Positions 24,301 to 56,341 of a stretch of 64,000 nt of DNA are shown in pieces (position 1 is the first letter of the stretch; each line of letters opens with the position of its first letter). Position numbers and translations under genes: made by a program. Source of the DNA: a virus; the IMG/VR virus record IMGVR_UViG_3300045975_000444, positions 19,296 through 83,295 of that record, one strand, 5' to 3'. The notes beneath the pieces are model-generated. The model was not told where the DNA came from. It saw only the letters and a program-made list of their open reading frames with translations, and searched no databases.

Positions 24301-27300
24301 CTCCGCCTGACGCTTGGCCGCCGCGTTGTCGAAGATCTGGTTGATGATCTTGCCGGACTCCTCCGCGCCCTTGGCGAGCTGGAGCCCTTGCAGGTACATC
24401 TTCTCGCCGATCGCGGAGAGGTCGGCTGCCTCGGCGGCGTCGACGTAGCCGTCCTCCATCGCCGCCGCGAACGTGACCTCGTACTGGGTCGTCAGCTCGG
24501 CCAGGCGCTTGGCCGCCGGTGATTCGGCCAGCCCCTTGAGCGAGGCGTCGATGGCCGCCTGCTTCTGGGCCGCGAGGATCGACTCGGAGGTGAGTGCGCG
24601 GGTGACCTCGCCCTCCCGGCCCGGCGCCGCCACTGCCGCTTCGAGGAGACGCGCGTTCATCTGCTCGATCGCTTGCAGATTCTGCTCGGTCTGCTCGGCC
24701 ATGAGACCGAAGAACTCCTCGACCTTGGTCGGGGCGAGCGCCTCGTCGATCGCCTTGTCGACCTCCTTCCAGGCCGCCACCTGGGCCTTGATCTGCGGGA
24801 GATAGGACTGAAGGTTGCCCTTCCCTTCGGCGATCGCGTTGGTGATCTCGGTCGTCCACTCCTGAAGTCCCTCGGGGGTCTTCAGGTCGAAGTCCTCGGC
24901 GCGGTCGAGCACGTCGAAGACCGGCTGGAAGGAGGTCGCGATCGCCGTCTTGTCGAAGAGCTGCTTGGTCGACTCTTCGAGGAACTTGGTCTTGATGGGC
25001 GCCTTGAGCTGCTCGGTGAGCGCCTGCACCCCGCCCTCGGGCGTCGCCGCCTCGAAGATCTTGGCCCAATTCTCACCGATGAACTGCGCCGAGGCCGCGG
25101 CCGACTTGGTGAGCTTCTCGAAGGTCTCCTGATTGACGGTGTAGCCCTGCTTGGCGAGATCCTTCCAGAGTTCCGCGAAGTCGTTGAAGTCGGCCGCGCC
25201 CGAGAGGAGCCACTCCTTCTGCGCCTGGTTCAAGCCCTCGAAGGCGAGCTTGCCGTCCTTCTCCAGGGAGAGCAGTGCCTGGAGGCCGAGCTGCGTCCCT
25301 TGCGGGAAATCCTGCTCGAAAATCTCGACCAGCCCGGCGGCCGACTCGCCGAGCGCGTTGATGCCCTCGGCCTGCGCCTCGGTGTCGGTTGCCCCGGTAA
25401 ACTCCTTGGCGGCAAGCGTGACCTGCTCTTGGGCATCGCCGAGCTTGCGGAACGCCTTGTAGACGTCGACGCCCGCCTCGCGGGCCAAGCCGCGGAAGCT
25501 CTCCCTCGCGAACTGGAGCGCCTCGTCGACGGTCATCCCCTCTTCGATGCCGCGCGAGAAATACTCCCCGAAAAGCTGGCCCATCTCCAAGCCGATGCGC
25601 CCGGCGTCCTCGGGATGCTCGGCGCCCTCGCCGAAGATGATCCCGAAGAGGGCTTGCCCCTGAGCGGAGATCTCGCGGAACGCTTGCTCGCTAAGGCCGC
25701 GCTCCAGAGCGACTTGGCGCGAGCGTGCCTTGACCGGGTCCTCGCGCGAGAACGGCCCGAGCACCGCTTGCACCGGACCCTCGGGACCGAAGATCTCCGA
25801 GCCGGCGAGGTATCGCTGCGCCTCTCTCCGATACGCCGTCCCGAGCGTCGGGATGCCGAGGAGGCCGAAGCCGATGTCGTTCAAGAAGTCGCGCACTGCG
25901 GGGATGAATGCCGCCGGCCCGAGGAACGCCGTCGCCGTCATCGGCAAGAGATTCTCGGAAATGGTCCCCTGAAAGGTACGCTCGCGAAGCGCTTCGCGAT
26001 TGACGCCCTGGAGCAGGAACTTCCCGAAGATCGACGAGACGGCGCCGACCAGAAGCCCGATGATCCCGCCAGCGCCGCCGCCGAGCCCACCGACGGCGGC
26101 GCCGACGATGGTCGACATGATGGTGTTGACGAGCTGGGCGTTCTTCAGGATGGAGCGCTCGACGTTCGCCAGCCGGGCAGGGAGCCCGGTGTCGCTGATC
26201 AAGCCGCCGAAGAGCTGCGCGCCCTGGAAGCCGCCGAGCGCGCCCGCAAAGGCGCCGGCCCCCGAGAAGCCGCCGCCGGCAATCGCCTCTCCGGCCGGCG
26301 CCGTGCTTGAGCTGCCGCCGACGACGTTGGCGAATTGCCCGGTGCCCGACGTCGAGATGGCCGTCCCGCCCGCGCTGATCACGGTCGTGCCACCGCCGAA
26401 GAGACTGCCAAGCCCGAGCTTGTTGGCGGCCCAGCCGAGAATCCCGGTATTGCTGTTCGAGCCGAGCAGCAGACTGAGGAGCCCGGTCTGACCAGAGCCG
26501 CCCGTGCTGATGTTGGCGGCGTTGAGGAGCCCGCCACCCCCGGTGACGAGGTTCCCGGTCGAGAGGTCGACGCTCACCCCCGGCAAGAGCACGCCGCCGC
26601 CCGGCGTGAGCGTGTTGCCGCCGATCCCGATCCCGCCCCCGCCGCCGCCACCCAAGCCAAAGAGGTTGCCGATCAGGCCGAGCCCCTGGCCGGCGATGTC
26701 GAAGACACCCTGGAACGCGCCGCCGAGCGTGCCCTGCGTCGTCTTCCCGAGATCGAAGATGTTCGCCTTGAAGACCTGGTCGAAACCGAGCTTCTCGGTC
26801 AGGACCGCCTTGAACATGTCGCGGCCGATCGACTTGCCGAGATTCTTGAACGCCTCGCCGAGGTCCTCGCCCTCGAAGACGACGTCGGCGAGCGTATCGG
26901 CGAAGCGCTCGCCGAACTCGATCACCGACTCGTTGACTTGGTCGAACTGCTCGCGGAGGCGCTCGGCCTCGTCGGCCGCGTCGACGATGTTGGTCGCGAG
27001 GTCGCGGTTGCCGACGTTGATGGTCTCCTGGTCGATCGCGATCTGCCGGTAGGCCTCCTCGATCGGGATGAGCCCCTGTTGGGCCTGGCGGAGGTAGTTG
27101 AGTTCGGCGTTGATCTGCTTGAGGCGCTCCTGACCCGCCTGCTGCTTTTGCAGCTCCCGGACCGCCTTGAGATCCTCCTCTCTCGCGCGGGTCGTCTCCT
27201 TGAGCAGCGCGATCTCTTTCTCGTTGGCGCCGAGCTGGACGGCTTGCTGCGCCGCCGCCTGGACCTTCAAGTCGATGAGCCGCTCCTCGACCTCGGCCGA

Positions 27301-29868
27301 GTCGAGCTTCTGCGCGACGATCTCCTCCCAGACCTGGCGCTCCTGGGCGGCCGCTTCGGCCGAGGTATTGGTCTCCTCGATCAGGCTCTTGATCGCCTCT
27401 TGCTGGCGCTCGTAGGCCTGCGTGACCTTCTTCGACTCGGCCTCCTGCTTGGAGAGTTCCTCCTGACTCTTGCCGACCGCGGTCACGAGCTTGCCGTGCT
27501 CGGCTGCCGTCTTGGCCGTCACCCCGAGGCTCTTCTGCTGGCTCTCGGCGAGCTTGCCGTCGGCCTCGGCCGCGTCGAGCGTGCCCTGCTTGCGCTTTTC
27601 AAGGAGGTCGAGTTGCTCTCGGAGCGCGACGTTCTGCTCGCGTGCCGCCTGCTCGGCATCGACACCGCCGGCCGCCTTCTTCGCCTCCAGCTCGGCCCGG
27701 TAGAAGTCGAGCTTGGCCTTCTTGTTGATGTCGGTGGCCTGCTGGGCAGCCTCGGCGGCATTCAACTCGGCCTCGCGCTGCTTGACGAGGACATCGATGT
27801 AGCCTTCGGCCGAGACCGGCAGGCTACCGGCCGCGGCGAGCGCCTCCTGCATCGCCGACGTGTAGGCGCGGATGCTGTTGACCGACTGCGCCAGTTCGAG
27901 CGCGCCCGCGGCCGCTTGCTGCTCCTGGAGCGAGAGGAACGCCATCCCCGAGCCAAGGCCGCGCACCGCATCCTCGGCGAGGCCAAGGGCGACCGCGAGG
28001 ACCTTGAGGTTCTCCGATTGACGCAGGTATTCGTCGGTGAGCGCCTTCTCGCCCGCCGTGTCGTGCGCGCGGATGGCGATCTGACGCTTCTGCAAAAGGT
28101 CGTCGAGAGCCCTGTTGACCTCGTCGATCGCGGCCTGCGCACCCTTGAGGTCGCCCGCCAGGCCCGCCGCGACACCGCCCGAGATGGTCCGGTCGAGTCC
28201 TGCCGACCTTGCGACCGACTCGGCCGCACGCCCGGAGATCTTCTGGCCGATGTCCGCGTCGGCAAGCCGCCGCTCGATGCCCTTGGCGATCTCCGAGCCG
28301 AGCGCCGCGCCGATCGCGAAGCCCCCGACCGCGACTGCCGCAACGACGGCCGGGCCGCCGAGCGTGGCCCCGATGGCCGCCCCGAGCGCACCGCCGACCG
28401 TGCCGAGTGCCGCCGGGACGCTCGTCAGGAGCGACGTGGCGATCCCGGTCGCGAGCGAGAGGGCGATCCCCGGCGCGGCGGCGGCGATGGCGAGCGTGAT
28501 CTGACCGACCATGTCGGTCACCGCATCGAGAACGACCGGGATGCCGCCCGAGATGGCGTCGGCGAAGATCTCGCCGAGCGACTCACCCTTGGCCGCGCTC
28601 GCAAGCGCATCGCCCAAGCGCTTGCCGATGTCGCCGAAGGCGTCGGCCAGACCCGACTCGGCAATCGCCTTGCGGATCGATTCGAGGAACTCGCTCAAGC
28701 CCGGCGCCAGCTCGGCCGCCAACTGCGTCGCGAGCCCCTCGGCCGCCGCCTGGATCGCCGAGAGATTCGTGGCGACGCTCGCGAGATTCTTGATCTGCTC
28801 GCCCGAGAGTGCCCGGCCGACCTTCTCGGCCTCGGCGGCGAGCCGGCCTAACCCCTCGCCACCCTCGGCCAAAAACGGCAAGAGCTGGAGCGCGTTGCGC
28901 CCGAATAGCTCCATGGCGAGCGCCGTACGCTCGGCCGACGGTCCCATCGCCGCCATCTTGTCGGCGACGAGCTGGAGCAGCTCGGACGACGAGCGCGCCT
29001 GGTCGGTTGCGATGCCGAGCTTCTGGAAGACCTCCTGAAAGCGCTCGGAGCCGTCGCGCGCTGCCTCGTAGGCACGAACAAGCTGGCCGACGCCGCGCGA
29101 GACGCCCTCGAAGGAGGTCCCCGTGACCTCGGCCGCGAACTTGAGCTTCGACAGCTCCTCGGCGGCGATGCCGGTCGACTGCGCCAGGTCGGCGAGCTGG
29201 CGCCCCGACTGGATCTGCTGATTCACCTCGGCGATCGCGTCCTTGACCGCCTTGAAGGAGACGACGACTGCGGCGGCCTTGAGCACCACATTCGTCAGCT
29301 CCGAGACGACGCTCTGACCGATGCCGGTCCCGAGCGCGCCGAGATTGCCCGTGGACCGGATGAACTGGAGCTGATCGTAGAGCGTGCTGAGATCGCGCTG
29401 GCTCGCGGCCGCCTGCCGGCCGACGCTGGTGATGCCCTCGGCGAGAGTCTCGGTCGCCCGCCCGCCCGCCTGAGCTGCCTCCCCGATCCGCGATGCCTGG
29501 TCGCCGAACAGCTCTAGCTGCTGGCCCGAGGCGGCCGCGGCCTGACCCGTTGCCACCAAGCCCTCGCGGGTCTCTTCGAGCTGCTCCGCGATCGCCCCGA
29601 AGCCGCCGGCCTGGGCCGCACTGGCGATACCCTGGACGATGCCCTCGAAGGCCCCCGCGAGCGCGGTCGCCGAGGCGGTCGCCTCGGTCAGCGAGGCGGC
29701 CAGCGTCCCGGCGCCCTGCTGCGCCTGAGCGAGCGACTCGGCGAGACCCTGGAAGCCCGAGGTCCCGGCAATCGAGTTGCCAACCTCCTGAGCTAGGCCC
29801 GCGAGACGGCGGAGCCCGGCCTCCGCGTCCGCGATGTCGAGAGTGATCCTTACCGGGATGTCGGGCAC
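21352..29868 (-). CDS. tape measure protein (2838 aa)
   Basis: very long Ala/Gly/Glu-rich helical protein after the chaperone genes; LADLAQSTGIAAEELSKLKFAAE...AMELFGRNALQLLPFL TMP motif. Confidence 0.92.
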   Translation of the reverse strand: MPDIPVRITLDIADAEAGLRRLAGLAQEVGNSIAGTSGFQGLAESLAQAQQGAGTLAASLTEATASATALAGAFEGIVQGIASAAQAGGFGAIAEQLEETREGLVATGQAAAASGQQLELFGDQASRIGEAAQAGGRATETLAEGITSVGRQAAASQRDLSTLYDQLQFIRSTGNLGALGTGIGQSVVSELTNVVLKAAAVVVSFKAVKDAIAEVNQQIQSGRQLADLAQSTGIAAEELSKLKFAAEVTGTSFEGVSRGVGQLVRAYEAARDGSERFQEVFQKLGIATDQARSSSELLQLVADKMAAMGPSAERTALAMELFGRNALQLLPFLAEGGEGLGRLAAEAEKVGRALSGEQIKNLASVATNLSAIQAAAEGLATQLAAELAPGLSEFLESIRKAIAESGLADAFGDIGKRLGDALASAAKGESLGEIFADAISGGIPVVLDAVTDMVGQITLAIAAAAPGIALSLATGIATSLLTSVPAALGTVGGALGAAIGATLGGPAVVAAVAVGGFAIGAALGSEIAKGIERRLADADIGQKISGRAAESVARSAGLDRTISGGVAAGLAGDLKGAQAAIDEVNRALDDLLQKRQIAIRAHDTAGEKALTDEYLRQSENLKVLAVALGLAEDAVRGLGSGMAFLSLQEQQAAAGALELAQSVNSIRAYTSAMQEALAAAGSLPVSAEGYIDVLVKQREAELNAAEAAQQATDINKKAKLDFYRAELEAKKAAGGVDAEQAAREQNVALREQLDLLEKRKQGTLDAAEADGKLAESQQKSLGVTAKTAAEHGKLVTAVGKSQEELSKQEAESKKVTQAYERQQEAIKSLIEETNTSAEAAAQERQVWEEIVAQKLDSAEVEERLIDLKVQAAAQQAVQLGANEKEIALLKETTRAREEDLKAVRELQKQQAGQERLKQINAELNYLRQAQQGLIPIEEAYRQIAIDQETINVGNRDLATNIVDAADEAERLREQFDQVNESVIEFGERFADTLADVVFEGEDLGEAFKNLGKSIGRDMFKAVLTEKLGFDQVFKANIFDLGKTTQGTLGGAFQGVFDIAGQGLGLIGNLFGLGGGGGGGIGIGGNTLTPGGGVLLPGVSVDLSTGNLVTGGGGLLNAANISTGGSGQTGLLSLLLGSNSNTGILGWAANKLGLGSLFGGGTTVISAGGTAISTSGTGQFANVVGGSSSTAPAGEAIAGGGFSGAGAFAGALGGFQGAQLFGGLISDTGLPARLANVERSILKNAQLVNTIMSTIVGAAVGGLGGGAGGIIGLLVGAVSSIFGKFLLQGVNREALRERTFQGTISENLLPMTATAFLGPAAFIPAVRDFLNDIGFGLLGIPTLGTAYRREAQRYLAGSEIFGPEGPVQAVLGPFSREDPVKARSRQVALERGLSEQAFREISAQGQALFGIIFGEGAEHPEDAGRIGLEMGQLFGEYFSRGIEEGMTVDEALQFARESFRGLAREAGVDVYKAFRKLGDAQEQVTLAAKEFTGATDTEAQAEGINALGESAAGLVEIFEQDFPQGTQLGLQALLSLEKDGKLAFEGLNQAQKEWLLSGAADFNDFAELWKDLAKQGYTVNQETFEKLTKSAAASAQFIGENWAKIFEAATPEGGVQALTEQLKAPIKTKFLEESTKQLFDKTAIATSFQPVFDVLDRAEDFDLKTPEGLQEWTTEITNAIAEGKGNLQSYLPQIKAQVAAWKEVDKAIDEALAPTKVEEFFGLMAEQTEQNLQAIEQMNARLLEAAVAAPGREGEVTRALTSESILAAQKQAAIDASLKGLAESPAAKRLAELTTQYEVTFAAAMEDGYVDAAEAADLSAIGEKMYLQGLQLAKGAEESGKIINQIFDNAAAKRQAEITAAVENAKAQERAILSGPISKALTEGIVGKKPLGEISVTLGEDIKAGLTEAIIGGMADALINAVVVQGFLAPFLAFWDIAVKDALSPEGPGGKEITPAEREGLRELATIIVEQGGKAVEFVLPFLEDLIGIGRDAGLGPPLTPAEKRRKERDEQREREQRDLPTREERQRERRLEERRRERARREKEELGLEGIAVAREEPTRREPLVRTIEQVGEGLTRFARRVKEGLGDLEQIEPGTGENVRRSLEELREGFKTGIGEQITQALAGIDPGAAKNFRETLEDISDIDPTGAAKIKDAMDDMAEMEPGAAEKLRETLTRVGGISPQDADSFVLAFEQLLKVSPELAKSIADSVGKLGQGMSPLAQITAALTAGLESVGPGFEDAGAAGAQAIADAGGALAAALQGIAAGLASIDFSTGGGGGGGGIVRRRTSIRRAGGGESDLESTASMLGLETVSSRSGRTSGGASGRGVASPPPRTSSPGGPRDGYTVPLSPHAPKPEEDEEGDEEKEFKVSFNYDAAIADFFAGGTEQELSEAISEATGQGLIDGLIAAIFAPEVEKMVEKISELFKKAKADGVITPEEMQEITTEAKKFGAQMKQDAKELKPIVKDIAKDFGVDLGDATSEGIVGGLSGAIEDFWRGGTKEDLRKAFNEATFKGVVEGMINALILSPVMKKYQEEWEAAYTKAMEDGTISIAEGKTLSKIADRMGDDFVTLAEYAQPGFQKLAKLFGVDIAKETKEALPEGVKGGIAAAFRDSKTPEEFLNNVRKGIYEHVLDALIQAFIADALIQGALAPFLAYLDLVWKQVAEGKKTREQGIAETRIILGYIHDETEALLPLFAEFAGTTKSFASDLGYVAESADTTADAAERAADAAEDVSDATAQLETEMVELGKVKADILGATAQLAFESLVPAGPDTRKISPEEQAELNAIMRQMTILLARLLDDGVTATTYLDGVQVSRQVEKSNTRRQRAGAVTTGPAA

Positions 29869-45343: not shown

Positions 45344-45885
45344 ATGATTCCTCGCTTTTCCCGCCGCCGAGCCCGCGCACGTTCGTTGTAGTGCGCGCGG
45401 GTTTCGGCACGCCAGACACGCTGAGCCTCCCTATACCGAGCACGGTTCCTCGGATCTGCCTTGTACGCTGCCTCTTGAGCCCGGCGACAGGGGAGGCATC
45501 GCCGCAACCCTTCACCGTCGATCCCGAACGGGCCTCCGCATTTCGGACAGCATGTCCTCTGCGCGAACCGCGCAGGGGAGCCGACGCCGCGGAGGATGTT
45601 CTCACGACGCGTGACTGGCTCCAGATGAAGTGGGTTCAAACATCCTCGGTTCCGGCAGAGATGATCCAACTCCAGCCCAGATGGAATCTCACCGATGAAG
45701 GTCCGGTAGGACCACCGATGGACGACAATCTGCTTCCCATCCACGTACACGACTCCGTAGCCCTGCGAGTTTCTGCCGTAAGGCCAGAGCCAGCACTCGT
45801 TGTCGAGCGGTCGCGCCGCGACGTTGGAGAGAAACCGTGCGATGTCCCCGCGCCGTGCCCTCATCGGAACGAGCACCAGGGTCAT
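45340..45885 (-). CDS. HNH homing endonuclease
   Basis: ECWLW..GYG...VHRWSY..FIGEIPSGLELDHLCRNRGCLNPLHLEPVTRREN; paralog of 1146-1673. Confidence 0.9.
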   Translation of the reverse strand: MTLVLVPMRARRGDIARFLSNVAARPLDNECWLWPYGRNSQGYGVVYVDGKQIVVHRWSYRTFIGEIPSGLELDHLCRNRGCLNPLHLEPVTRRENILRGVGSPARFAQRTCCPKCGGPFGIDGEGLRRCLPCRRAQEAAYKADPRNRARYREAQRVWRAETRAHYNERARARRREKRGII

Positions 45886-46829
45886 GCCACCCGAACCACC
45901 GCGGCGCGGCCGTCGAAGATCGCGTCGGCGTAGCCGCAAATTTGATCATGCCACCAGACGCGCTCAAGCCAGGCGTTAGGAATGGCCGACCGGCCGTAGA
46001 ACGCCCCGGCGATCTGGCCGGTGACCGCGCCGGTCGAGTCGGCGTCGTCGCCGAGATTCACGACGTCCAAGATCGCCTCCTCGAAGGAATCCGTTCTGGC
46101 GAACGCCCAGAGCGCGGCTTCGAGCGTCGTCACGGCCCAGCCCAAGCCCGAGACCTCGGGCTCCGCCTTCTTGCGGTACTCGCCGCGGACGATCCCGTGG
46201 AGGGTCGCCGGGTACTCGCGAAGGTGCTTCTCGGCCTGAAGGAGGACCTCGTCCTTCGGAGCGCCGAGGAGCGCCGCGCGCATGACGAGCCCGAGGATCT
46301 CGCACGCGGCGACCGGGACCGCGGCCGAGTGCGTCGTCTTCGAGCTGGCTCGCGCCAGGCGGCGGGTCGTATGCCGGTCGGGGAAGGCCCAGAGGACGGC
46401 GGGTGCCAGGCGCATGATCGAGCCGTTCCCCTCGCCGCGGCCGTCCTTGGGCTTGGCCGCCTCGATCTGCCCGGTGCGCCCGAAGGCTTCGAGCGCCGGC
46501 CGGACGGTGCCGCCGATGTCGAAGCACTCGCCCGTCGAGGAAAGATAGCCCTGGCGATACCACCGGCAGTACCGTTCGAGCTGGTCACGTGCATCGAAGC
46601 CACCCTGCTCGATCAAGCTCTCGGCCATGCAGAGCGCCATGGACGTGTCGTCGGTCCACTGGCCCGGCTCCAGGTCGAAGCACCCGCCGCCGACCATGTC
46701 GGAGACGGGCTCGAACTCGCCGCGCGACTCGAACTCGACCGCCGTCCCGACGGCGTCGCCGCAGGCCAATCCGAGGAGCGCGCCCCTGAAACGGTCGCGG
46801 AGCTGGTCAGTCTTCGAGGTCGTCGCCAT
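45882..46829 (-). CDS. ADP-ribosylglycohydrolase (DraG/ARH family)
   Basis: GALLGLACGDAVG; GQWTDDTSMAL; DIG; GNGSIMRLAP; TH; NLGDDADSTGAVTGQIAGAFYG. Confidence 0.95.
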   Translation of the reverse strand: MATTSKTDQLRDRFRGALLGLACGDAVGTAVEFESRGEFEPVSDMVGGGCFDLEPGQWTDDTSMALCMAESLIEQGGFDARDQLERYCRWYRQGYLSSTGECFDIGGTVRPALEAFGRTGQIEAAKPKDGRGEGNGSIMRLAPAVLWAFPDRHTTRRLARASSKTTHSAAVPVAACEILGLVMRAALLGAPKDEVLLQAEKHLREYPATLHGIVRGEYRKKAEPEVSGLGWAVTTLEAALWAFARTDSFEEAILDVVNLGDDADSTGAVTGQIAGAFYGRSAIPNAWLERVWWHDQICGYADAIFDGRAAVVRVA

Positions 46830-47826
46830 GGACGCTCCGGGCCTCTTCGAGGGTCCGGTGAGCGTGGCGAAGAGCCCACTCCCAGCCGTGCGTTGCGGCG
46901 ACCAGCGCCAGGACCTTCTGCTCGCCGGGCGTGTACTGCGCGGCCTCGGGCGGCACGTCTTGCCTTACATCGGGTATACTCATCGCGCTATGTCTAACAT
47001 AGCTCGCCTTCTCGCGCGAGTCGGCCTTCGCCTGATCCCAGGCGGCGCCCGAGTAGTAGCGCTCGGAGCGCTCGCCTTCGATCCAGCCCTCGCGACTCTT
47101 GGCCCGCGCCATGGAGCCATCGCGATCGCCCCCAGGCCAGCCCCCCCAGCGCATGAAGACGACGTCGGGCTCGTCGTCGCGAGCGAAGTTCCAGCCCTCG
47201 GGCGCGAAGTCGGGATTGAAGTGCATGCGCCCGGTCTCGACGAAGCCCGCCTGCGTGTAGAGGTTCCGGAGGTAGCCGTCGTAGGCATCGAGTGTCTTGC
47301 CGCCCCGGTCGATCGCCTCGAAGAGCGCGTCCACGCCCGAGCCTTTCGGGCCGCCGTTGTTGAAGAGGTTCTGAATGTCGCCGTCCGGGTCGAGCGCGAA
47401 GCCCACCCGGCCGTCGCGGGCGGTGAAGAGCTGATGGTCGCCGAGTGTGGCCGGGTCGAGCGGCGAGAGGTAGCCCGGCCGGGTCGTCTGGTTTCGCTGG
47501 CGGACGAACTCCTCGGGCGAGGCCACGTGCCAGGCAAGCCGCCACTTGCCACCGACCGGCACTCCCTTCGGGTGCCGCGGCTGCTCGGGGTTGTAGGCGA
47601 CCTCGCGCTCCCACCAGCGCAGGCTCGCCTCGTCGGCCGCCTCGACCTCCCACCAGCGCAGGATCGCCTCGTCGTCGGCCGGCTCGACTTCAGACTCCTT
47701 CGGCACGACGCCGATGATCTTCCCGTCGACGTCGCGCACGACCCGGTTCGGCTGGTCCGAGTCGACGTCCTTCGTCCGCTTCGGCCAGTCGGCGTTGGCG
47801 AGGTCGGCGTCGGGGTAGCGCTTCAT
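46807..47826 (-). CDS. tagged effector-like protein with GNAT-like domain
   Basis: WWEREVAYNPEQPRHPKGVPVGGKW tag; DGDIQNLFN...GSGVDAL..AIDRGGKTLDAYDGYLRNLYTQAGF GNAT-like pattern. Confidence 0.6.
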   Translation of the reverse strand: MKRYPDADLANADWPKRTKDVDSDQPNRVVRDVDGKIIGVVPKESEVEPADDEAILRWWEVEAADEASLRWWEREVAYNPEQPRHPKGVPVGGKWRLAWHVASPEEFVRQRNQTTRPGYLSPLDPATLGDHQLFTARDGRVGFALDPDGDIQNLFNNGGPKGSGVDALFEAIDRGGKTLDAYDGYLRNLYTQAGFVETGRMHFNPDFAPEGWNFARDDEPDVVFMRWGGWPGGDRDGSMARAKSREGWIEGERSERYYSGAAWDQAKADSREKASYVRHSAMSIPDVRQDVPPEAAQYTPGEQKVLALVAATHGWEWALRHAHRTLEEARSVHGDDLED

Positions 47827-47833: not shown

Positions 47834-50800
47834 TCACCAGCGTAGGACGCGGAGCACATACTCGCCACCGAGGACGATGATCTCCTCCTCGTTCAGGCAC
47901 CCCGCACCCGTGCGCGCGGTCGAGAAGATGCGATCCCTCGGCACCTCGACCGCGAAGACGGTGCCGCCGCCCGCGAACTCCTTCGAGATGTTCGGGTTGG
48001 TCGAGAACGACGAGAGCGGCTGGAGCTGGACGGTGTCGCCGTCCGAGTAGTCCTCGGACACACCGCGGAAGAGCCAGAGCTTCTCGGGGCCGTCCTTGAG
48101 CGTCTCCTGCGTGTTGGCGTACATGGACTTGACCGACGACGTGAGCACCGCCTCGTGCTCCGAGGCGAGCGTCACGCCGCCTCCGAAGCCGTGCCCGAAG
48201 TGATCCATCTCGGCGTCTTCTAAGTTGAAGACCTTCTGCGCGGTCACTTGCACGGCGATCGCCCCCGAGTCGTGATCGCCCGAGGTCGCCGCCCACTTCT
48301 TGACGATGGCGTCGGCCGCGATCTCCGCCTCCTGGCCGCGCTCGGTCGTCGCCTCGGGGCTCACCGCTTCCCCGTAAGGGCGCTTGAAGGCCGCCTCGGT
48401 GTTGAACGCCCGGAGCTGGTCGTCCGAGACAGCGGCATCGGACGCCATCATGGCGCCGATCTCTTCCATGACCTTGTTCTTGGCCATCGAGGCGTGCGAC
48501 GTGTCATCGTAGTTGAGAAGATCGCGCGTCTCCTCGACGTTCGCGGCGCCCGATGCGCCGAGCGTCTCCTCGACGCTCAGGCGCCTCGACTCCTCCTGGT
48601 ACTCCTCCTGCGCCTCTGCCTCGGCCTCGGCCGCCGCCTCGTTGTCGGCCTCCTCGGACGACTTGTTGTGCTCGCGGTAGCCCTCGCGCGCCTGGCGGTC
48701 CTCGAAGTCGTCGTCGGACTCGCCTGGCGCCTGCTCGCCCTCGGTGAACTGGCCGTCGTAGTCCTTCCACGAGTCGAGCGCGACCTGATCGTAGTATTCG
48801 CTGCCGTAGTCGCCCTCCTCGTTCGCTTCCCAGTAGATCGCGCGGCCCTGGTCCTCCTGGACGCTCTCGGGCGGGCGCTCGTCGTTGTAGCCGCGCCACT
48901 CGTCGCGAGCCTGACGCGCGGCGTAGTCCTCGTCCGACTCGTTCGGGTGCTGCTGGTCGCGCGGCAGGCCATGGGCTTCGAGCGACGCCTCGACCTCGTC
49001 GTCGTGCGGCTCCCACTGGTCCAAGTTCCCCTGGTTGCTCCAGTCGTCCGCCTTCTCCTCGGCCTCCAGGCGCTTCTGCCCTTCCTCGGGCGTCGGCTCC
49101 ATGCCGGGGAAGGTCGTCTGGCCCTCGGGCGCCTGCTCGTGCTCCAGGGGCTTGAGTTCCTGCGCACGCTTCCAGGCCTCGTCGGCCTTGGCCTGCTTGG
49201 GCGAGATCTTCTTCTCGACCGGCGGGCCTTTCTCCTCGTCGTCGTCGTCCTCGTCGCCACCCGCCTCGCCTTCCTTCGAGGTGAACTGGCCGCCGTGCTC
49301 GCCGGACTTCACGTGATACGGGTTGTAGGCAAGCTCGCGCTCCCACCAGGCGACCGCGGCGTCCTCGATCAGCTCGGGCTCGCCGCGGACCAGCGTCTGG
49401 ACCTCGGGCGAATCCCAGACGGCGTCGATCGCCGCGTCTTCTTCGGGCGTCGTCCGGATCTCCTCCGCCTGCTCGATGGACTTCGGCTCGACCCCCTCGC
49501 GCGCAGCGACGAAGCGCACGCCCGAGCGCGACGCCGCAACCTTCACCGTGTAGCCGCGCTCCTTCAGGTAGTTCGCGAGCACCGTGCTCGACACCGAGTC
49601 CTCGTCGAGGTCGAAGTCCAGCTCGATCGAGTCGCCGTGCTCGCGCCAGAGGTCGCGCCCGGTCTTGGTCGACATGAGCTTCGACATCGAGACACCGCTC
49701 GTCGTCCAGCGCCCGCTTGCGTCGATGAAGCCCATGTCGCGCTGCCACTCGATCGGCTCGCGCTGAATCGCGCGCTCCATCGCACTCGACGCCGAGAAGT
49801 CGCCGTCGTACCCGAAGCGCGGCCAGGTGTAGTAGCCGACCATCCGCTCCTTGGGGTCGTCGGAGTCCTGGCGCGCAGCGTAGACGTGGATCTTCCCGAA
49901 CTCGCCGTTCTCGCGCGCGGCCTCGACCTGAGCCGCGAAGACTTCGAGGCCGGTCCCATCGGGCGCGTGCGGGTCCAAGAAGAACGACGAGTTGTAAAGT
50001 TCGCCCTCCTTGATTACCCGCGTCTGCTGGCCGCTCCAGGTGCGCCCGTCAGCACCCGTGCCGGTGATCTTCGACGTGATGTGGAGATTGCCGTCGTGGC
50101 CGTTGATCGTCGATCGGATCTCGACCTCGCCGTACTTCTCCAGCGCTTGGAGCCCGGTCAGCTCGACCGCTTGGCGCTCGCTCAGGCCGCGCGCTTCGAG
50201 GATCTGCCTCCCTTTCTCCGTCGCCGAGGCCGTGATCTGGCTCGTGCCCTCGGACCACTCGACCGGCGGCTGCTCCTCGTACTCCTCGCGCTCAAGCCGC
50301 TCCAGCTCCTCCTTCTCCTCGCGCTTGCGCTCGGCCTTCTCCTCGCGCTTCTGCTCCTGCTCGGCGACCCACTCGTCCATCGACTCGTTGGCTTCGCGGT
50401 ACTCGCCCCGGCGCTCGCGCGCGGCGTAGTCCTCGTCCGACTCGCCCTCGGCCTGGTTCATGTCGTCGAACGACTCGTCGTATGCCTTCCACTCGTCGAG
50501 CGCTTCGCGGTTGTAGTAGCTGCCGCCCTCGTCCGAGTAGTCGTCCTGCTCCCACTCTTGGGGATCGCCCCAGTCGTACTCGGGACGCTGGTCGTTTCGG
50601 TCGCGCCACTCGCCGCGAAGGACGCGCTCGGCGTGCTCCTCTTCCGACTCCTCCGGGTGGCGCTCCCAGTCGCCCTGACCAAGCTCGCGGTTGGCCTCGA
50701 TCACCGCCTCGTCGTAGGCTTCCCACTTGGCGAGCTGGTCCTCGTCGCTCGCCGCCCCCGGCTCCGGCTCCTCCTCGTCCTCGACGTCCTCGGCGATACC

Positions 50801-51088
50801 GGGGAGGCCCTTCTGGCCCGGAGCGGCCGGCTCGTGCTCGACCGGGCGGAGGTCCTGAGCGCGCTTCCACGCCTCGTCCGCCTTGACCTGCCTGGGCGAG
50901 ATGCGCTTCTCGACGGGCGGCCCCTTCTCTTCGTCCTCGTCTTCGTCCTCGCCGCCGTCGCCGCCTTCCTTCGTCGTGAACTGCCCGCCGTGCTCACCCG
51001 ACTTGACGTGATACGGGTTGAAGGCGACCGAGCGCTCCCACCAGGGATGCCCTGCGTCGCCAACCGCAGGTTCAGGCTGCAAGCTCAC
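47834..51088 (-). CDS. polyvalent protein: two tagged acidic modules carrying a GNAT-like domain and a C-terminal R-S-E ADP-ribosyltransferase
   Basis: duplicated ~230-aa leader WWERxxA[FY]NPYHVKSGEHGGQFT; GTGLEVFAAQV...GYYTWPRFGYD; LFRGV...LSSFST...NEEEIIVL; GTG at 51088 overlaps the portal-MuF end. Confidence 0.75.
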   Translation of the reverse strand: MSLQPEPAVGDAGHPWWERSVAFNPYHVKSGEHGGQFTTKEGGDGGEDEDEDEEKGPPVEKRISPRQVKADEAWKRAQDLRPVEHEPAAPGQKGLPGIAEDVEDEEEPEPGAASDEDQLAKWEAYDEAVIEANRELGQGDWERHPEESEEEHAERVLRGEWRDRNDQRPEYDWGDPQEWEQDDYSDEGGSYYNREALDEWKAYDESFDDMNQAEGESDEDYAARERRGEYREANESMDEWVAEQEQKREEKAERKREEKEELERLEREEYEEQPPVEWSEGTSQITASATEKGRQILEARGLSERQAVELTGLQALEKYGEVEIRSTINGHDGNLHITSKITGTGADGRTWSGQQTRVIKEGELYNSSFFLDPHAPDGTGLEVFAAQVEAARENGEFGKIHVYAARQDSDDPKERMVGYYTWPRFGYDGDFSASSAMERAIQREPIEWQRDMGFIDASGRWTTSGVSMSKLMSTKTGRDLWREHGDSIELDFDLDEDSVSSTVLANYLKERGYTVKVAASRSGVRFVAAREGVEPKSIEQAEEIRTTPEEDAAIDAVWDSPEVQTLVRGEPELIEDAAVAWWERELAYNPYHVKSGEHGGQFTSKEGEAGGDEDDDDEEKGPPVEKKISPKQAKADEAWKRAQELKPLEHEQAPEGQTTFPGMEPTPEEGQKRLEAEEKADDWSNQGNLDQWEPHDDEVEASLEAHGLPRDQQHPNESDEDYAARQARDEWRGYNDERPPESVQEDQGRAIYWEANEEGDYGSEYYDQVALDSWKDYDGQFTEGEQAPGESDDDFEDRQAREGYREHNKSSEEADNEAAAEAEAEAQEEYQEESRRLSVEETLGASGAANVEETRDLLNYDDTSHASMAKNKVMEEIGAMMASDAAVSDDQLRAFNTEAAFKRPYGEAVSPEATTERGQEAEIAADAIVKKWAATSGDHDSGAIAVQVTAQKVFNLEDAEMDHFGHGFGGGVTLASEHEAVLTSSVKSMYANTQETLKDGPEKLWLFRGVSEDYSDGDTVQLQPLSSFSTNPNISKEFAGGGTVFAVEVPRDRIFSTARTGAGCLNEEEIIVLGGEYVLRVLRW

Positions 51089-54000
51089 TCGCGACCTCCT
51101 CGGCCGAGAGCAGCGTCGTCCAGCAACGGCAATTTCGCGACGCGATCCTGCCCGTGCTAAAGTAGCCGACCTCCGACTGGAGGTCGAAGACATGGCCCAC
51201 GTACTTGAACCGGCGGAGTTGGACGATCTCGTCCGTCGTTACCAGGGAGGCGTCAGCCAAAAGCAACTCGCGGATGAACGCGGAGTTGCGGACTCGGTCG
51301 TAGCGCGCCTTCTCCGGCAACGGGGTGTTCCACTGCGCGGCCCGGCCGACTGTAAGCGAGTCGTCCCACTTGAAGTCGAGCCCATAGTCGTTCGGCGCTT
51401 CGTCGAGGGCCAGAGCGTGCTGGCCCTGGCGTGCGATCTGGGAGTGAATCGCGACGTGATCTACACCATCCTGCGACGTGCGGGGATGAAAGGCCGCACC
51501 CGGTCGGAAGCGGAGACCCTCAAGTGGCGGACCATGCGCGAGGACGCCGCGGCTGTCGAACGTCAACTCGCGAGGGCGTGGCTGGTTCGCCGCGGACGCA
51601 AGGGGCCGAATGGGGGAGAAGCGGGCGGGGGAATCGGCGCGCACGAGGTCGCGCTCGCCAGCGAACTCGCGGCGCGAGGCTTGGCGTTCAGACATCAATT
51701 TCGGATTCCCAAACCTCGGCCTGCCTTCGGGCGGGGCGTCAAGTCCTATTACCAAGTCGATCTCGCCTCGGACCCACTGCGCGTCGCCGTCGAGATCGAA
51801 AGCAAGTGGCTGATGAACCCGCGTGGTTCCGGCCGCCGCGAGCGCGTCGAAGACATCCTCGACGCGGGCTGGGCGCTGTTGTTCCTGGTCGTGCCCGAGA
51901 GGCGCACGCCCGTCAACATCGCCGCGCTCGCAGACTACGTGGTCGCCTTCGCGCAGGTCGCATGCCTTAACGATGCCGCGCGCGGTCAGTATGGGATGAT
52001 TGACCGTTACGGTCACCGTATCGCCCCGGCGCGTTCGCACTTCGATGGCCTCGCCCGCGTACAGGGCTTTTAGCCCGCCCAGGAAGCGGCCCCCGACGAG
52101 CGTCCCCGGCAGGACGCAGTTGATGGTCTGGTCCGGGTCGGCGTTGGGGTCGCCGGGGTAGGTGAGCCCGAAGCCGAACTCCGAGCCGACCGGGACGGCG
52201 GTGCCGTGCAGCTCCTGATGCGACGGGCGGACGCGCTCGTCGGCCATCGAAAGCCAGCGCCACCAGATCTCGCGGTCAAGCTCCGGCCCCTGGAGCTGCG
52301 CCAGCGCGGCCCGCCCGGCGTTGGCGGCGTTGTACGCCTCTTCGTCGCCCCAAAGCTGGCCCCGGCCCTCGAACTCGCCGCCGCCGGTGAGCGTCGGGCG
52401 AAGCGCGCCCATCAGCTCCTTCGAGATCGTCCCAACCGCCGCGCCCTCCAGGACGAGGCCCGACTCGACGACGAGTAAGATGTCGCGCCGAACGCGCTCC
52501 AGGGCATCGCCGACGAGTGCCCGGCGACGCGAGAGATACGCCTCGCGCTGCGCCTCGGCGCGGGCCAGGAGCGCCGCGCCGACCGTCGCCCCGGCGGCGA
52601 GCCAGCCGAGCCCGCGCATCTCCTCGTGCATGGTCTCGACGCCCTCGTCGAAGGCCTCGCCGGCCTCGTCCAGGATGTCGTCGATGACCGAGTCGAGGCC
52701 GATGTTCTCAACCAGCGGGTCGACGAGCTGCGGGTCGACGGCGCCGAAATAGTAGCGACCCTTCGAGTCGGTCAGGATCTCCTTGCCCTCGGGCTCGGGC
52801 TCGCCCGCGAGGAGCCGGATCTTCGGGCGCTTGTCCTTCAACTTCCAGAGCCGGTCGTTGACGGTCTTGAAGGCCCGGTTGACGCCGCGCTCGTAGATCT
52901 TGCGGATCTTCTTGGAGTACGGCGACACGCGCCCCTGAAAGGCGATCGACGCTTCGGTCTCGCGCGGGGTCGACTGGGCGACCAGGCGATCGAAGGCGGC
53001 GGCGGTCACGCCGACCCGGTGGGCGCGCGCTTCGAGTGAGTCGAGCTGCTCGGTCGAGAGCACCGCCGCGGCCGAGAGGCGGGCGCCGGCAAGGGCCGCG
53101 CGCACCCGCGCGGCACGCGTGCCCTCGCCCTGATCGTCGACGCCCTCGGAGCGATCGTCCTCGCCCTTTTTCTTGGGCTCCGCATCCTCGGGCGTCTCGT
53201 CGTCGTCGGTCGAGTCGAACTCGGGCGGCCGGCCGCCGCCACCGGGCGCAGGCCCGCCCGGTCCGGCGAAGGGGGCGAGTTGCGGCGGCGGCTCGGGCGG
53301 GTTCTTGGCCTGCTCCAATCTGAGCTGGATCTCCTCCATGGTGAGGAGCCCGGCCGCCAGGAAGCCCAGGTCCTTCCCTTCGTAGTCCTCCAGGGCGAGC
53401 GAGGTGATGCGCGCGCACTCGTCCATCGGCACGCCCATCGCGAAGAGGCGCGAGGCGTACTCGATCGCCTCGCCGAAGTCGTCCTGGGCTGCCTTCACCT
53501 CCGACCAGTCGAACGCGAACTCAAGCGACGGCTCGACCTCGGCGACGATCTGCTGCGACACGCCGTCGGCAAAGCGCTCCGAGAGCGGCTCGATGGTCGC
53601 GGTGTGGCGCATGCGATTGAGGATCGCCATGCCCTCGCGCCCGAAGCCGGTCGACTCGTAGACGTTCAGGTCGATCAGCGGCACGCCGTGGGCGCGCGCG
53701 ATCTCCTCGACCATGTAGCGCCGGGCGTTGATCTCGTCGGCCTCGACCGCGGTCATGCCGAGGCGCTCGACCTTCCAGTCGCTGCCGAGCCCGGCGACGC
53801 CGCCGCGCTCGTCGGCCATCTGGCGGCGGAACTCGGCCAAGAAGGCCTTGAGTTCCTGGTCCTGCGTCCCGGCCCTCTGGTTCATCAAGAGGAGCGCGGG
53901 GAGGCCACCCTTCATCTGGCGGTTTCGGCCCTGGAGCGCGTACCAGTAGTCGGTCTCGACAGCGAGCCGGCACGCCTCCATCGGGCCGACGCCGCGGTGA

Positions 54001-54722
54001 TAGTCGCGCGGGTTCCAGAGGTACTCGATACGCGCCATCTCCTCGGGCGGGATCTGGACGACCTGGCCCGTCGTCGGGTCGGCGTAGGTCCACTCCGAGA
54101 CCTTCCAGAAGGCCTTGCCCGGCTGCGGCTCGACCGAGCCGACCGGGAGCGGGATGAAGGCGCGCCTGAGCGCCTTGCCGTTCCTGGCGAAGCGCGTCAA
54201 GTATTTCTCTTCGCTCTTCCAGATGTGCGCGTCGCCGATCTCCAGCATGGCCGACACGTTCACCGTGACCCAGCGCTTGAGCGACATGTACGGGTCGGCC
54301 TCGCCCATGGGCTTGGCGATCGCCTCGGCGAACTCGCCGGTGTACTCCTTGAGGGTATCCTTGTCGCGGATGATCGGCCGCGCCTTGGCGAGGTTGTCCA
54401 GGATGACGACCCGGCACCTGAGCGCCGCGGTCGACATGATGAGCTGCGGCGGGCAGCGGCCCACGCCGCCCCATCCGCTCCACCCACCCCATGGGTTCGA
54501 CCAGTCGCCCGCGTTCGTATCGTAGGGTCGCGCCGCCAAGCTGAAGCCGCCGCCGAAGCCCTGGCCGTAGCCGAAGCCGGCGGCAAGGCGCATCTCGACC
54601 AGCTCGGTCGCCTCGCGGAGCGTGAGCGCCCGGCGTTCGGCCTCGGGCGACGCCGCGGCTCGCTCGGGCTCGTGGCCGGTCAGGGCTGCCGAGAGGACGT
54701 CGGGGATCTCGCCGATGCTCAT
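51072..54722 (-). CDS. portal protein fused to MuF (gp7-like) head morphogenesis domain, intein-containing
   Basis: portal: NPRDYHRGVGPMEA, EIARAHGVP, TIEPLSERF; MuF: WLSMADERVRPSHQELHG...YPGDP....IN[intein]CRC. Confidence 0.88.
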   Translation of the reverse strand: MSIGEIPDVLSAALTGHEPERAAASPEAERRALTLREATELVEMRLAAGFGYGQGFGGGFSLAARPYDTNAGDWSNPWGGWSGWGGVGRCPPQLIMSTAALRCRVVILDNLAKARPIIRDKDTLKEYTGEFAEAIAKPMGEADPYMSLKRWVTVNVSAMLEIGDAHIWKSEEKYLTRFARNGKALRRAFIPLPVGSVEPQPGKAFWKVSEWTYADPTTGQVVQIPPEEMARIEYLWNPRDYHRGVGPMEACRLAVETDYWYALQGRNRQMKGGLPALLLMNQRAGTQDQELKAFLAEFRRQMADERGGVAGLGSDWKVERLGMTAVEADEINARRYMVEEIARAHGVPLIDLNVYESTGFGREGMAILNRMRHTATIEPLSERFADGVSQQIVAEVEPSLEFAFDWSEVKAAQDDFGEAIEYASRLFAMGVPMDECARITSLALEDYEGKDLGFLAAGLLTMEEIQLRLEQAKNPPEPPPQLAPFAGPGGPAPGGGGRPPEFDSTDDDETPEDAEPKKKGEDDRSEGVDDQGEGTRAARVRAALAGARLSAAAVLSTEQLDSLEARAHRVGVTAAAFDRLVAQSTPRETEASIAFQGRVSPYSKKIRKIYERGVNRAFKTVNDRLWKLKDKRPKIRLLAGEPEPEGKEILTDSKGRYYFGAVDPQLVDPLVENIGLDSVIDDILDEAGEAFDEGVETMHEEMRGLGWLAAGATVGAALLARAEAQREAYLSRRRALVGDALERVRRDILLVVESGLVLEGAAVGTISKELMGALRPTLTGGGEFEGRGQLWGDEEAYNAANAGRAALAQLQGPELDREIWWRWLSMADERVRPSHQELHGTAVPVGSEFGFGLTYPGDPNADPDQTINCVLPGTLVGGRFLGGLKALYAGEAIEVRTRRGDTVTVTVNHPILTARGIVKACDLREGDHVVCERGDVDGRAPLGHDQEQQRPARVEDVFDALAAAGTTRVHQPLAFDLDGDAQWVRGEIDLVIGLDAPPEGRPRFGNPKLMSERQASRREFAGERDLVRADSPARFSPIRPLASAANQPRPRELTFDSRGVLAHGPPLEGLRFRPGAAFHPRTSQDGVDHVAIHSQIARQGQHALALDEAPNDYGLDFKWDDSLTVGRAAQWNTPLPEKARYDRVRNSAFIRELLLADASLVTTDEIVQLRRFKYVGHVFDLQSEVGYFSTGRIASRNCRCWTTLLSAEEVASELAA
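51132..52118 (-). mobile_element. intein (329 aa) in the MuF N|CRC motif
   Basis: block A CVLPGTLV; block B TVTVNHPILTARGIVKACDLREGDHV; block F YVGHVFDLQS; block G FSTGRIASRN followed by Cys+1; removal restores DQTINCRCW. Confidence 0.9.
51192..52073 (+). CDS. HTH-repeat + Vsr/DUF559-like endonuclease encoded antisense inside the intein
   Basis: GGAGG at 51179-51183; two HTH units (RRYQGGVSQKQLADERGVADSVVARLL; RRFVEGQSVLALACDLGVNRDVIYTIL); HEVALASEL..RGL.F..Q...YQVDLA...VAVEIE..W...ILDAGWALL. Confidence 0.8.
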   Translation: MAHVLEPAELDDLVRRYQGGVSQKQLADERGVADSVVARLLRQRGVPLRGPADCKRVVPLEVEPIVVRRFVEGQSVLALACDLGVNRDVIYTILRRAGMKGRTRSEAETLKWRTMREDAAAVERQLARAWLVRRGRKGPNGGEAGGGIGAHEVALASELAARGLAFRHQFRIPKPRPAFGRGVKSYYQVDLASDPLRVAVEIESKWLMNPRGSGRRERVEDILDAGWALLFLVVPERRTPVNIAALADYVVAFAQVACLNDAARGQYGMIDRYGHRIAPARSHFDGLARVQGF

Positions 54723-54849
54723 AAGCGCGGCAGGGTGCGCCCGCGACCCCGTCTTACGAAGCCCGGCCGGGGCTCGTTTCTCCGCCTGGCGCGCAATTTC
54801 CGCGTGCTGCGGTGTTGCACACAAGCCGGCAATGTCTTACATAGGCTGC

Positions 54850-55442: not shown

Positions 55443-55471
55443 TGGACATTTGTCTTACATTGTGCTAGAAT
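55443..55471 (+). promoter_or_regulatory. sigma70-type promoter TGGACA-N17-TAGAAT with TGTCTTACA in the spacer; probably leaderless mRNA
   Basis: direct sequence; ATG at 55479 lies 7 nt after the -10. Confidence 0.7.
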
Positions 55472-55478
55472 GTAGTTC

Positions 55479-55760
55479 ATGGAGAATGCAAGACAGAGGC
55501 AGGGGAAGCCGTTCTTCGATCCCGCCCGCGCTCGCGCGATCGGGGCGAAGCGCTTGACCAAGGCGGCGCGCGCGTTCGCGAAAGCGCACCGCTGGCGGTT
55601 GCGGAACGGGACCATCCACACGCGCCGAGGGACGGACACCGCACTCCGCTCCTGGGCCGAGCTGGGCGATGCGCTGGTTCGATCGGGCGGGCTCGTGAAG
55701 GACCGCTCGGGATGGCGCGACCGCTACTCGGGCGAGCTGCTGGTCGGGAGGGCCGCATGA
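55479..55760 (+). CDS. hypothetical protein
   Basis: first gene after the promoter; ATGA overlap with the next gene. Confidence 0.6.
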   Translation: MENARQRQGKPFFDPARARAIGAKRLTKAARAFAKAHRWRLRNGTIHTRRGTDTALRSWAELGDALVRSGGLVKDRSGWRDRYSGELLVGRAA

Positions 55761-56341
55761 CCGCGGCCCGACGCATCGAGCTGAACCGGCGCGACCGCGC
55801 TCGGATCGAGAAGCTCCTCCGCGAGGCGAAGGCGGCCCGGACCATCGCCACCGAGCGCGAGGCCAAGGCCAAGGCGCTCAAGCTCGCCATCGCCAAGCGC
55901 GAGCGGCGTGGCATCCGGACCGCCGCCCGCGAGCGCGCGGCGAGCCTCCCGGCGCTCAGCATGACCGCGGTCGCCCGCTGGTACCGCGGCCTCTACGGCG
56001 AGCCCTGGCCCGAGGGCTGGTCCGTCCAGTGGGAGCGCTCGCTCGGGCGGCGCCGGCTCGGCGACTGCCACTGGCACTGGAAGCGCATCCGCCTCTCGGC
56101 CGCCGCGCTCGCCCGCTACCAGCCGGCCCAGGCGATCGAGACCCTCATCCACGAGATCGTCCACATGCGCAACCCCAAGCTCCGCCACGGCGCCGAGTTC
56201 CAGCGCCTCGTCCGCCAGGCCTACCTCCGGGCCGGCGGCCGGGTCGGCGACGGCGTCTGCCCGCTCACCCGCGCCGAGCGTCGCGTGTGGGGGACCGAGG
56301 TCGAGGCGCGCCTCGCCGCGCAAGAGAGGGAGGACGCATGA
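55757..56341 (+). CDS. SprT-like zinc metalloprotease
   Basis: RRLGDC....IRLS...TLIHEIVH......HGAEF (HExxH plus third His). Confidence 0.85.
   Translation: MTAARRIELNRRDRARIEKLLREAKAARTIATEREAKAKALKLAIAKRERRGIRTAARERAASLPALSMTAVARWYRGLYGEPWPEGWSVQWERSLGRRRLGDCHWHWKRIRLSAAALARYQPAQAIETLIHEIVHMRNPKLRHGAEFQRLVRQAYLRAGGRVGDGVCPLTRAERRVWGTEVEARLAAQEREDA

Follow-up and report, generated by a model that had tools for sequence, protein, structure and literature searches.

The stretch of DNA analysed here (the window) is 64,000 nt long and forms the final 64 kb of an 83,295-bp virus record in IMG/VR (IMGVR_UViG_3300045975_000444), which is rated 93% complete. On its minus strand, a gene for a fused portal-MuF head protein is interrupted at the N|CRC motif of MuF by a 329-residue insert (the bar marks the insertion site), and an open reading frame (ORF) of 293 codons runs through this insert on the plus strand. 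Based on sequence comparison and structure models, we read the insert as a mobile MuF intein with a homing endonuclease encoded by a gene of its own on the other strand, codon-aligned in the -1 register. The probability of this reading is estimated at about 0.82.

Intein and predicted antisense nuclease

The portal-MuF ORF (51072..54824 in the ORF list) encodes 1250 amino acids (aa). Pfam placed Phage_portal at residues 168–465 (2.8e-24), Phage_Mu_F at residues 821–903 and an Intein_splicing match that was split between residues 922 and 1217. By themselves, the final 150 aa of the N-extein passed the Phage_Mu_F cut-off (30.1 bits vs 29.6), and deleting the insert rejoined the NCRC motif of MuF. 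The intein Cys1 (52116–52118) lies immediately 3' of the N-extein sequence ...DQTIN. Block B (TVNH, i.e. T38-V-N-H41) is found at 51996–52007 and block F (HVFDL, within GHVFDL) at 51180–51194. The intein ends in SRN with Asn329 at 51132–51134, followed by Cys+1 of CRC(W) at 51129–51131. A preliminary description made from the sequence alone had given positions for the intein, its Cys1 and Cys+1, the plus-strand ORF and a -10-like TGCTAAAGT and had named the other intein blocks and a GGAGG motif; on inspection, all of these positions were correct and all of the features were present.

The model of the minus-frame product had the Hint fold that had been expected there, with a pLDDT (predicted score in the local distance difference test) of >90 in the folded parts. 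The features of a class-1 intein are present: Cys1, the TxxH of block B, a C-terminal Asn with Cys+1 and the predicted Hint fold. C1, T38, H41, H309 and N329 were invariant in 43 aligned inteins, and the (S/H)N|CRC junction was common to ~45 related loci and the window. Hence, the minus frame is a Hint-fold class-1 intein inserted at the MuF N|CRC motif, as judged from sequence and model. No endonuclease domain was detected in the sense frame of the intein by Pfam or in the predicted structure, in agreement with the preliminary description. The same description had taken the ~200 aa between the splicing blocks as shadow sequence. This holds for residues ~130–294, which were unconstrained (pLDDT <50 for residues 140–270), but not for residues 81–130, which fold confidently in the model and are under selection in their own frame.

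The plus-strand ORF starts with an ATG at 51192 and ends after 293 codons with a TAG at 52071–52073. Both frames share the same triplets, and intein residue i equals 310 minus nuclease residue j. His309 of block F lies opposite the nuclease ATG, and Leu16 opposite its stop codon. The C-terminal GQYGMIDRYG of the nuclease is the reverse complement of intein TVTVNHPILT, so its assignment as the antisense of block B was right.

The plus-frame protein passed the Pfam cut-off for HTH_58, a helix-turn-helix (HTH) family. Among 53 relatives, the Pfam matches were HTH_58 (38), REase MTES_1575 (27) and DUF559 (14). Together with the modelled fold, this corresponds to the HTH units and Vsr/DUF559-like nuclease expected on this strand. 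Besides HTH matches, searching the PDB with a sequence profile yielded only a weak match of DUF559-like type (3hrl, E 0.29); the nuclease fold was therefore approached via a structure model. The AlphaFold (AF2) model, built with the 53-member alignment, had a pLDDT of 87.3. It contained two HTH units of three helices each, a helical linker and a domain of alpha-beta-beta-beta-alpha-beta-alpha topology, which contains the alpha-beta-beta-beta-alpha-beta core of the Vsr-like/PD-(D/E)xK fold. The best of all fold matches was the homing endonuclease I-Bth0305I (PDB 3r3p).

Each of the residues E152, Q169, D190, E201 and R218 was kept in 51 or more of the 53 sequences, and the window has all five. 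The acids E152, D190 and E201 (each kept in 51–52 of 53) are inferred to be the metal-binding or catalytic residues. The N188 of the relatives is replaced by Gln in the window. No His column was conserved at ≥90% in the 53-sequence alignment. Since the nuclease domain has no conserved His, membership of the EDxHD family, as suggested in a 2025 preprint (Gosselin, Arsenault and Gogarten, bioRxiv 10.1101/2025.01.02.630785), appears doubtful. Taken together, the plus frame is a conserved gene; its predicted product combines two HTH units with a Vsr-like nuclease domain that keeps the acidic core.

Conservation, selection and expression signals

Homologues of the nuclease in databases reached up to 50% identity. 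A 53-member profile gave 1,463 matches at E<=1e-30 when compared with 1.84 billion protein cluster representatives. Members occur in phages of Pseudomonas, Vibrio and Idiomarinaceae, in contigs of low GC and in several lineages of bacterial metagenome-assembled genomes. A search of viral contigs with the window's own N-extein found no close relatives.

For comparison, 80 loci were kept of 166 in the viral collection, and eight genome loci were added (88 in total). The loci were fetched by their nuclease relatives in a search blind to the opposite strand, and the nesting counts refer to these 88 loci. In 87 of them, a long minus-strand frame spanned the whole nuclease gene and was always codon-aligned; the remaining one (L073) was free-standing. 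The antisense ORF, its ribosome-binding site and the acidic core residues, whose conservation the preliminary description had proposed as a check, were conserved in 87 of 88 loci. Antisense stops in homologous inteins would have spoken against the gene; neither frame had stops, even at low GC. At the 15 loci with 38–55% GC, the chance of an open frame was 3e-3 to 3e-11 per locus, calculated from the locus's own extein codon usage. The junctions were uniform across the relatives, with N|C(V/F/I)LPGT at the start of the intein and (S/H)N|CRC at the end, and the N-extein was Phage_Mu_F in 41 of 43 loci. No nonsense mutation was found in the 87 nested nuclease genes, though in the intein frame such a stop would read as Leu or Ser and do no harm. 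Since an indel would disrupt a host gene that is essential, the antisense layout may also protect the nuclease against decay by frameshifts.

The free-standing homologue (5950–6738 of L073, plus strand) is convergent to an uninterrupted MuF gene reading ...FNCRC... (region 5950–7416). Their 3' ends overlap by 60 nt, and a portal gene lies just upstream of MuF. No open antisense frame was found across the body of this homologue. It retains the C-terminal G(K)FGVI motif, so the motif is the nuclease's own and not merely a shadow of block B. A position beside the target gene is the usual location of a free-standing homing endonuclease, and the locus fits an origin of the nested form from free-standing nuclease genes of this kind.

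The window has a GC content of 69%. In the plus frame, the GC content at third codon positions (GC3) was 0.76 and that at first positions (GC1) 0.75, which gives no clear coding-strand signal. At 69% GC, an open antisense frame in the window alone is not beyond chance; the proof that the plus ORF is a gene therefore rests on homologues, domains, fold and selection and not on the window alone. The minus-frame GC3 was ~0.75 within the intein vs 0.93 in the N-extein, meaning that the strong codon bias of the host gene is lost in the intein.

We compared substitutions in the central region of the element in 15 pairs at 70–97% nucleotide identity. The differences per site at plus-frame codon positions 1, 2 and 3 were 0.258, 0.160 and 0.417, respectively, and the amino-acid change was 0.296 in the nuclease frame vs 0.493 in the intein frame. 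The same substitution pattern was seen between the window and its nearest relative (L001). In the read-through linker of the intein, the minus-frame identity was 0.12–0.30 vs 0.19–0.49 in the plus frame, and substitutions peaked at plus-frame position 3.

Constraint was measured in 49 sequences as the share of pairs with the same base at fourfold-degenerate sites of the nuclease frame. From a baseline of 0.30–0.44, this share climbed to 0.52–0.84 in three stretches (Table 1), all of which are parts of the intein that fold with a pLDDT of >90. One of them includes block B, where the preliminary description had both strands constrained, and this was borne out. In the stretch at the catalytic core, synonymous sites were conserved in both frames (0.57–0.84 in the plus frame and 0.59–0.91 in the minus frame), the intein pLDDT was >90, and the amino-acid identity of the window to L001 was 0.68 (plus) and 0.66 (minus). 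Hence, in mid-element the nuclease frame is selected, and both frames are selected at the three Hint-fold stretches. As double constraint and Hint fold coincide, ~113 of the 293 nuclease codons, including those of the D190/E201 core, are constrained by two proteins.

The expression signals of the nuclease lie in codons of the intein as well. The 49-locus consensus upstream of the nuclease start was GCAnCGGCAGTTGCTngtnACGATGCCnTntGCtAnaATCCAnCC.....CnGtcTGGAGGTCGTAnAC, followed by ATG, with a Shine-Dalgarno consensus TGGAGGTC at -15..-8. The promoter-like layout of the family resembles that of sigma-70, with a -35-like TTGCTn, a 17-nt spacer and an extended -10 TGnTAnaAT, followed by GGAGG and ATG. 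TTGCTn lies opposite the Ser and Asn codons of the splice junction, and TGnTAnaAT opposite those of Trp-(Met/Ile)-(Ile/Val)-Ala. Of the 49 loci, 19 had TANNNT precisely at -36 and 27 had it no more than 2 nt away from there (expected: 0.013 per locus at a fixed position). The three intein codons opposite the -10 ended in A or T in 16, 21 and 16 of 34 high-GC loci (expected: 3.8, 4.9 and 5.7; P 2e-7, 3e-10 and 4e-5). For the Leu opposite the Shine-Dalgarno sequence, CTC was the codon in 25 of 25 high-GC loci, compared with a share of 0.43 of the Leu codons in the exteins. With codon choice distorted in this way, the conserved intein residues alone are insufficient to explain the signals. In the window, the Phe codon under TGCTAAAGT is the rare TTT, and the extended -10 sits 2 nt nearer to the nuclease start than the TGnTAnaAT of the relatives. 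The conserved promoter-like element supports the independent expression of the nuclease that had been suggested from the window, and we infer, with good support, that the nuclease is transcribed independently in the family.

Alternative explanations and proposed mechanism

Three other explanations were considered. If the plus ORF encoded nothing and were a 'shadow' frame left open by chance in a high-GC gene, the often open codon-aligned antisense frame at 69% GC and the indecisive codon-position GC of the window would need no further cause. This reading is already refuted and keeps practically no probability. HTH_58 exceeds its Pfam cut-off, the family has 1,463 representatives at the strict threshold, and the frame is open even in loci of 38–48% GC (P down to 3e-11). 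Moreover, substitutions peak at plus-frame position 3 with the plus frame the better conserved, the AF2 model with its Vsr fold is confident, and a homologue stands free in L073. It is also very improbable that the intein no longer splices, in which case the insert would be tolerated as a loop, or portal-MuF otherwise processed, and only the nuclease gene would preserve the fossil. Against this, a conserved motif (NCRC) of an essential head protein is split by the insert, the model predicts the Hint fold with a pLDDT of >90, and Cys1, Thr38/His41, Asp312, Asn329 and Cys+1 are invariant or nearly so in 43 inteins. Intein-frame residues are, moreover, selected at the cost of synonymous sites of the nuclease. 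A dead intein would fit the ~165 unstructured linker residues that have to be carried and the lack of a penultimate His, considered below.

A nested gene that is real but is no longer, or never was, a homing endonuclease appears unlikely, although it deserves more weight than a dead intein. The product would then be a domesticated DNA-binding protein or nuclease residing in the intein, with a role in regulation, competitor exclusion or DNA processing. The complete lack of nonsense mutations in the 87 nested copies fits a sustained benefit as well as active homing, and the family is without the conserved His of the Vsr/EDxHD active site. The vertical-looking inheritance that the preprint sees in several VSR-type clusters fits this reading, and the transfer-like patterns that it sees in clusters 60 and 91 speak against it (bioRxiv 10.1101/2025.01.02.630785). 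What also speaks for homing is that the gene is tied to a single insertion site in a single host gene (MuF N|CRC, 41 of 43 loci), that the nearest solved fold, I-Bth0305I, is a proven homing endonuclease and that the free-standing relative adjoins an uninterrupted MuF target.

Several observations weigh against a mobile intein with an antisense homing endonuclease. The window's nuclease protein had no Pfam nuclease match at E<=1, and Foldseek ranked Vsr first for the model with a weak E-value (8.6e-3). The penultimate His of block G is Arg in the window (SRN), Ser in most relatives and His in few; this His is common, not obligatory, among inteins. The pairwise statistics use related sequences, so their counts are not independent events. 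The window's -35 is poor (ATTTCG), and a generic sigma-70 and terminator scan of 50900–52400 found nothing; independent transcription in the window itself is therefore plausible. The contigs of one soil metatranscriptome (X10) match 51090–51611 exactly, i.e. the nuclease start region and 5' half, and they give no strand, ends or level, from a library that may contain DNA. The stretch 51665–52232 was without RNA cover in X10, which carries no meaning.

The phage was present in many soil metagenomes according to public reads. No public-read contig joined 51131 to 52119, meaning that an intein-free allele was not observed. One isolated skip of 207 nt (from 51960 to 52168), whose shorter side has 21 letters, looks spurious.

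With the antisense homing endonuclease as the preferred reading, the element would work as follows. The nuclease would be transcribed from its own promoter, with the extended -10 opposite the codons that precede block G, and translated from GGAGG and ATG opposite block F. Its expression would thereby be independent of the late head operon. In a mixed infection, it would cut intein-free MuF alleles at or near ...ATCAAC|TGCCGT..., and recombinational repair would copy the entire element into the allele that was cut. Once portal-MuF has been translated, the intein would splice itself out, discard a meaningless read-through linker of ~165 residues and restore NCRC.

Whether intein and antisense nuclease are an old, obligately co-evolving two-strand unit, and not the recent landing of a free-standing nuclease in a loop, appears evenly balanced. 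The basis for such a unit is that the expression cassette (sigma-70-type -35, 17-nt spacer, extended -10, GGAGG and ATG) lies in selected codons of blocks F and G and the splice junction, and that ~40% of the nuclease codons, including D190 and E201, are shared with selected Hint-fold residues; the protection against frameshifts would add to this. Under the preferred reading, the element is a clear example from nature of how one set of codons can specify a protein on either strand, and of a parasite within a parasite that keeps an essential head gene intact. An intein could thus hand homing to a separately expressed gene, which would link canonical inteins, the 'fractured genes' of split inteins and free-standing homing endonucleases. 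The nested genes go unannotated (only the MuF gene is called at the locus in GenBank for Gordonia phage Vivi2), meaning that phage pipelines miss a nuclease family of at least 1,463 clusters.

Table 1. Features of the interrupted portal-MuF gene and the nested gene (positions in the window)
Feature	Position	Strand	Basis or remark
Portal-MuF-intein precursor gene, 1250 aa	51075..54824	-	ORF list and Pfam; stop at 51072–51074
N-extein (portal and MuF domains), C-terminal end ...DPDQTIN	52119..54824	-	Sequence and Pfam
Class-1 intein, 329 aa (Cys1, TVNH, HVFDL, terminal Asn329)	51132..52118	-	Sequence
C-extein CRCWTTLLSAEEVASELAA; would complete the MuF NCRC motif after splicing	51075..51131	-	Sequence
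Intein read-through linker, intein residues 130–294	51237..51731	-	Stop-free, otherwise unconstrained
Predicted nested homing-endonuclease gene, 293 aa and TAG, codon-aligned with intein	51192..52073	+	ORF, Pfam, homologues, model
HTH unit 1, nuclease residues 7–43	51210..51320	+	
HTH unit 2, nuclease residues 60–96	51369..51479	+	
Vsr-like PD-(D/E)xK-fold nuclease domain, residues 147–293 (E152, Q169, D190, E201, R218)	51630..52070	+	
Shine-Dalgarno GGAGG, 8 nt before ATG	51179..51183	+	Antisense of block F Asp-Leu-Gln codons
Extended -10-like TGCTAAAGT	51155..51163	+	Antisense of Tyr-Phe-Ser-Thr codons before block G
Doubly constrained stretch, nuclease 1–15 vs intein 295–309			Fourfold-degenerate sites
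Doubly constrained stretch 1, nuclease 241–293 vs intein 17–69 (blocks A–B)	51912..52070	+	0.52–0.83 vs baseline
Doubly constrained stretch 2, nuclease catalytic core 181–225 vs intein 85–129	51732..51866	+	

Neighbouring genes and relation to known systems

The fusion of portal and MuF domains in one ORF of 1250 aa recurs in several related loci with N-exteins of 720–1045 aa. The gene after portal-MuF (47837–51088, minus strand; ~1084 aa) probably starts with a GTG at 51086–51088 and overlaps the MuF stop. Its product has two acidic modules, each opening with WWER..A.NPYHVKSGEHGGQFT.KEG, and a C-terminal DRAT-like ADP-ribosyltransferase region (PF07357, E 2.8e-5, 23.9 bits with a cut-off of 25). 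Two genes further on lies an ADP-ribosylglycohydrolase gene (45885–46964, minus strand; PF03747, E 3.4e-73). From their sequences, the ~1084-aa protein and the glycohydrolase look like MuF-associated enzymatic cargo with a reversing enzyme. Two giant structural-module ORFs, 21355–29868 and 14147–20335 (both minus strand), encode 2838 aa and 2063 aa and had no or only weak Pfam matches (CBM_4_9, E 6e-4). A SprT-like metalloprotease-domain gene (55469–56338; PF10263, E 1.9e-10) lies on the plus strand, just upstream of portal-MuF.

In canonical bifunctional inteins (for example PI-SceI, PI-PfuI and PI-PkoII, PDB 2cw7), the intein polypeptide itself contains the endonuclease as a domain in the same frame. 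The element in the window differs from these in that the predicted nuclease is a protein of its own, encoded by the opposite strand, and what fills the slot in frame is for the most part unstructured.

The 'fractured genes' are split inteins with a gene for a free-standing Vsr-like homing endonuclease between the halves, mainly in phages (Dassa et al. 2009, PMC2677866). They share with the window a Vsr-like nuclease with N-terminal DNA-binding modules, encoded by its own gene in the intein locus; this gene comes with its own signals for expression and overlaps the coding sequences of the intein parts over short distances. In the 'fractured genes', host gene and intein are broken in two and the products are joined by trans-splicing, whereas in the window the intein frame reads through the antisense nuclease and the host gene is unbroken.

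I-Bth0305I is the prototype of the EDxHD homing endonucleases. It is encoded in a group I intron and has a catalytic His (H213) followed by an Asp (D222) (Taylor et al. 2011, PMC3239194; PDB 3r3p). The window's nuclease resides in an intein and belongs to a family without a conserved His, the relatives of which are placed in MTES_1575 and DUF559 by Pfam.

Anti-sense LAGLIDADG inteins have been described in Synechocystis DnaX and a Chloroflexus SpoVR-like protein (Gorbalenya 1998 and Gogarten 2002, as relayed in bioRxiv 10.1101/2025.01.02.630785). According to these relayed descriptions, they have a contiguous intein with the endonuclease as a separate ORF on the opposite strand, as in the window, and differ from it in host gene and in the nuclease family (LAGLIDADG vs Vsr-like fold).

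The closest match is found in minor capsid proteins of actinobacteriophages, which carry full inteins with 'anti-sense VSR-like HENs' (homing endonucleases) that match 3R3P in HHpred (bioRxiv 10.1101/2025.01.02.630785). The Gordonia-phage proteins Vivi2 gp14, Angelicage gp15, Affeca gp15 and Fosterous gp12 are listed in the preprint as 'minor capsid, MuF-like, class 1, VSR -1 ORF', and the target site of the Vivi2 cluster is given as ...ATCAAC|TGCCGGTGC, VIN|CRC (bioRxiv 10.1101/2025.01.02.630785). The window's insertion site reads atcaac|tgccgttgc. A tblastn search with the window's nuclease matched the antisense strand of Gordonia phage Vivi2 gene 14 (E 6e-12, 28.5% identity over 95%) as well as that of Fosterous gene 12 and Affeca gene 15 (all three with E 6e-12 to 5e-9 and 91–95% coverage). 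Shared features are the MuF-like host gene, the ..IN|CRC site, a class-1 intein, a -1-frame nuclease and a predicted Vsr/I-Bth0305I-like fold. The window's member is distant (~28% identity), and its host gene is a portal-MuF fusion in a soil phage that has not been cultivated. Judged by sequence, the element is a distant member of the described 'VSR -1 ORF' family at the same site.

The cautious remark on novelty in the preliminary description thus did not hold, as the layout had been published for homologous MuF inteins of Gordonia phages (bioRxiv 10.1101/2025.01.02.630785). As far as checked, four points go beyond the preprint: the family is found well outside actinophages; the nuclease ends, catalytic core and expression signals overlap selected intein codons; membership of the EDxHD family appears doubtful; and the layout may act as a frameshift shield. 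With layout and homologous Gordonia-phage elements already described in 2025, the contribution of the window is one of breadth and mechanistic detail and not of discovery.

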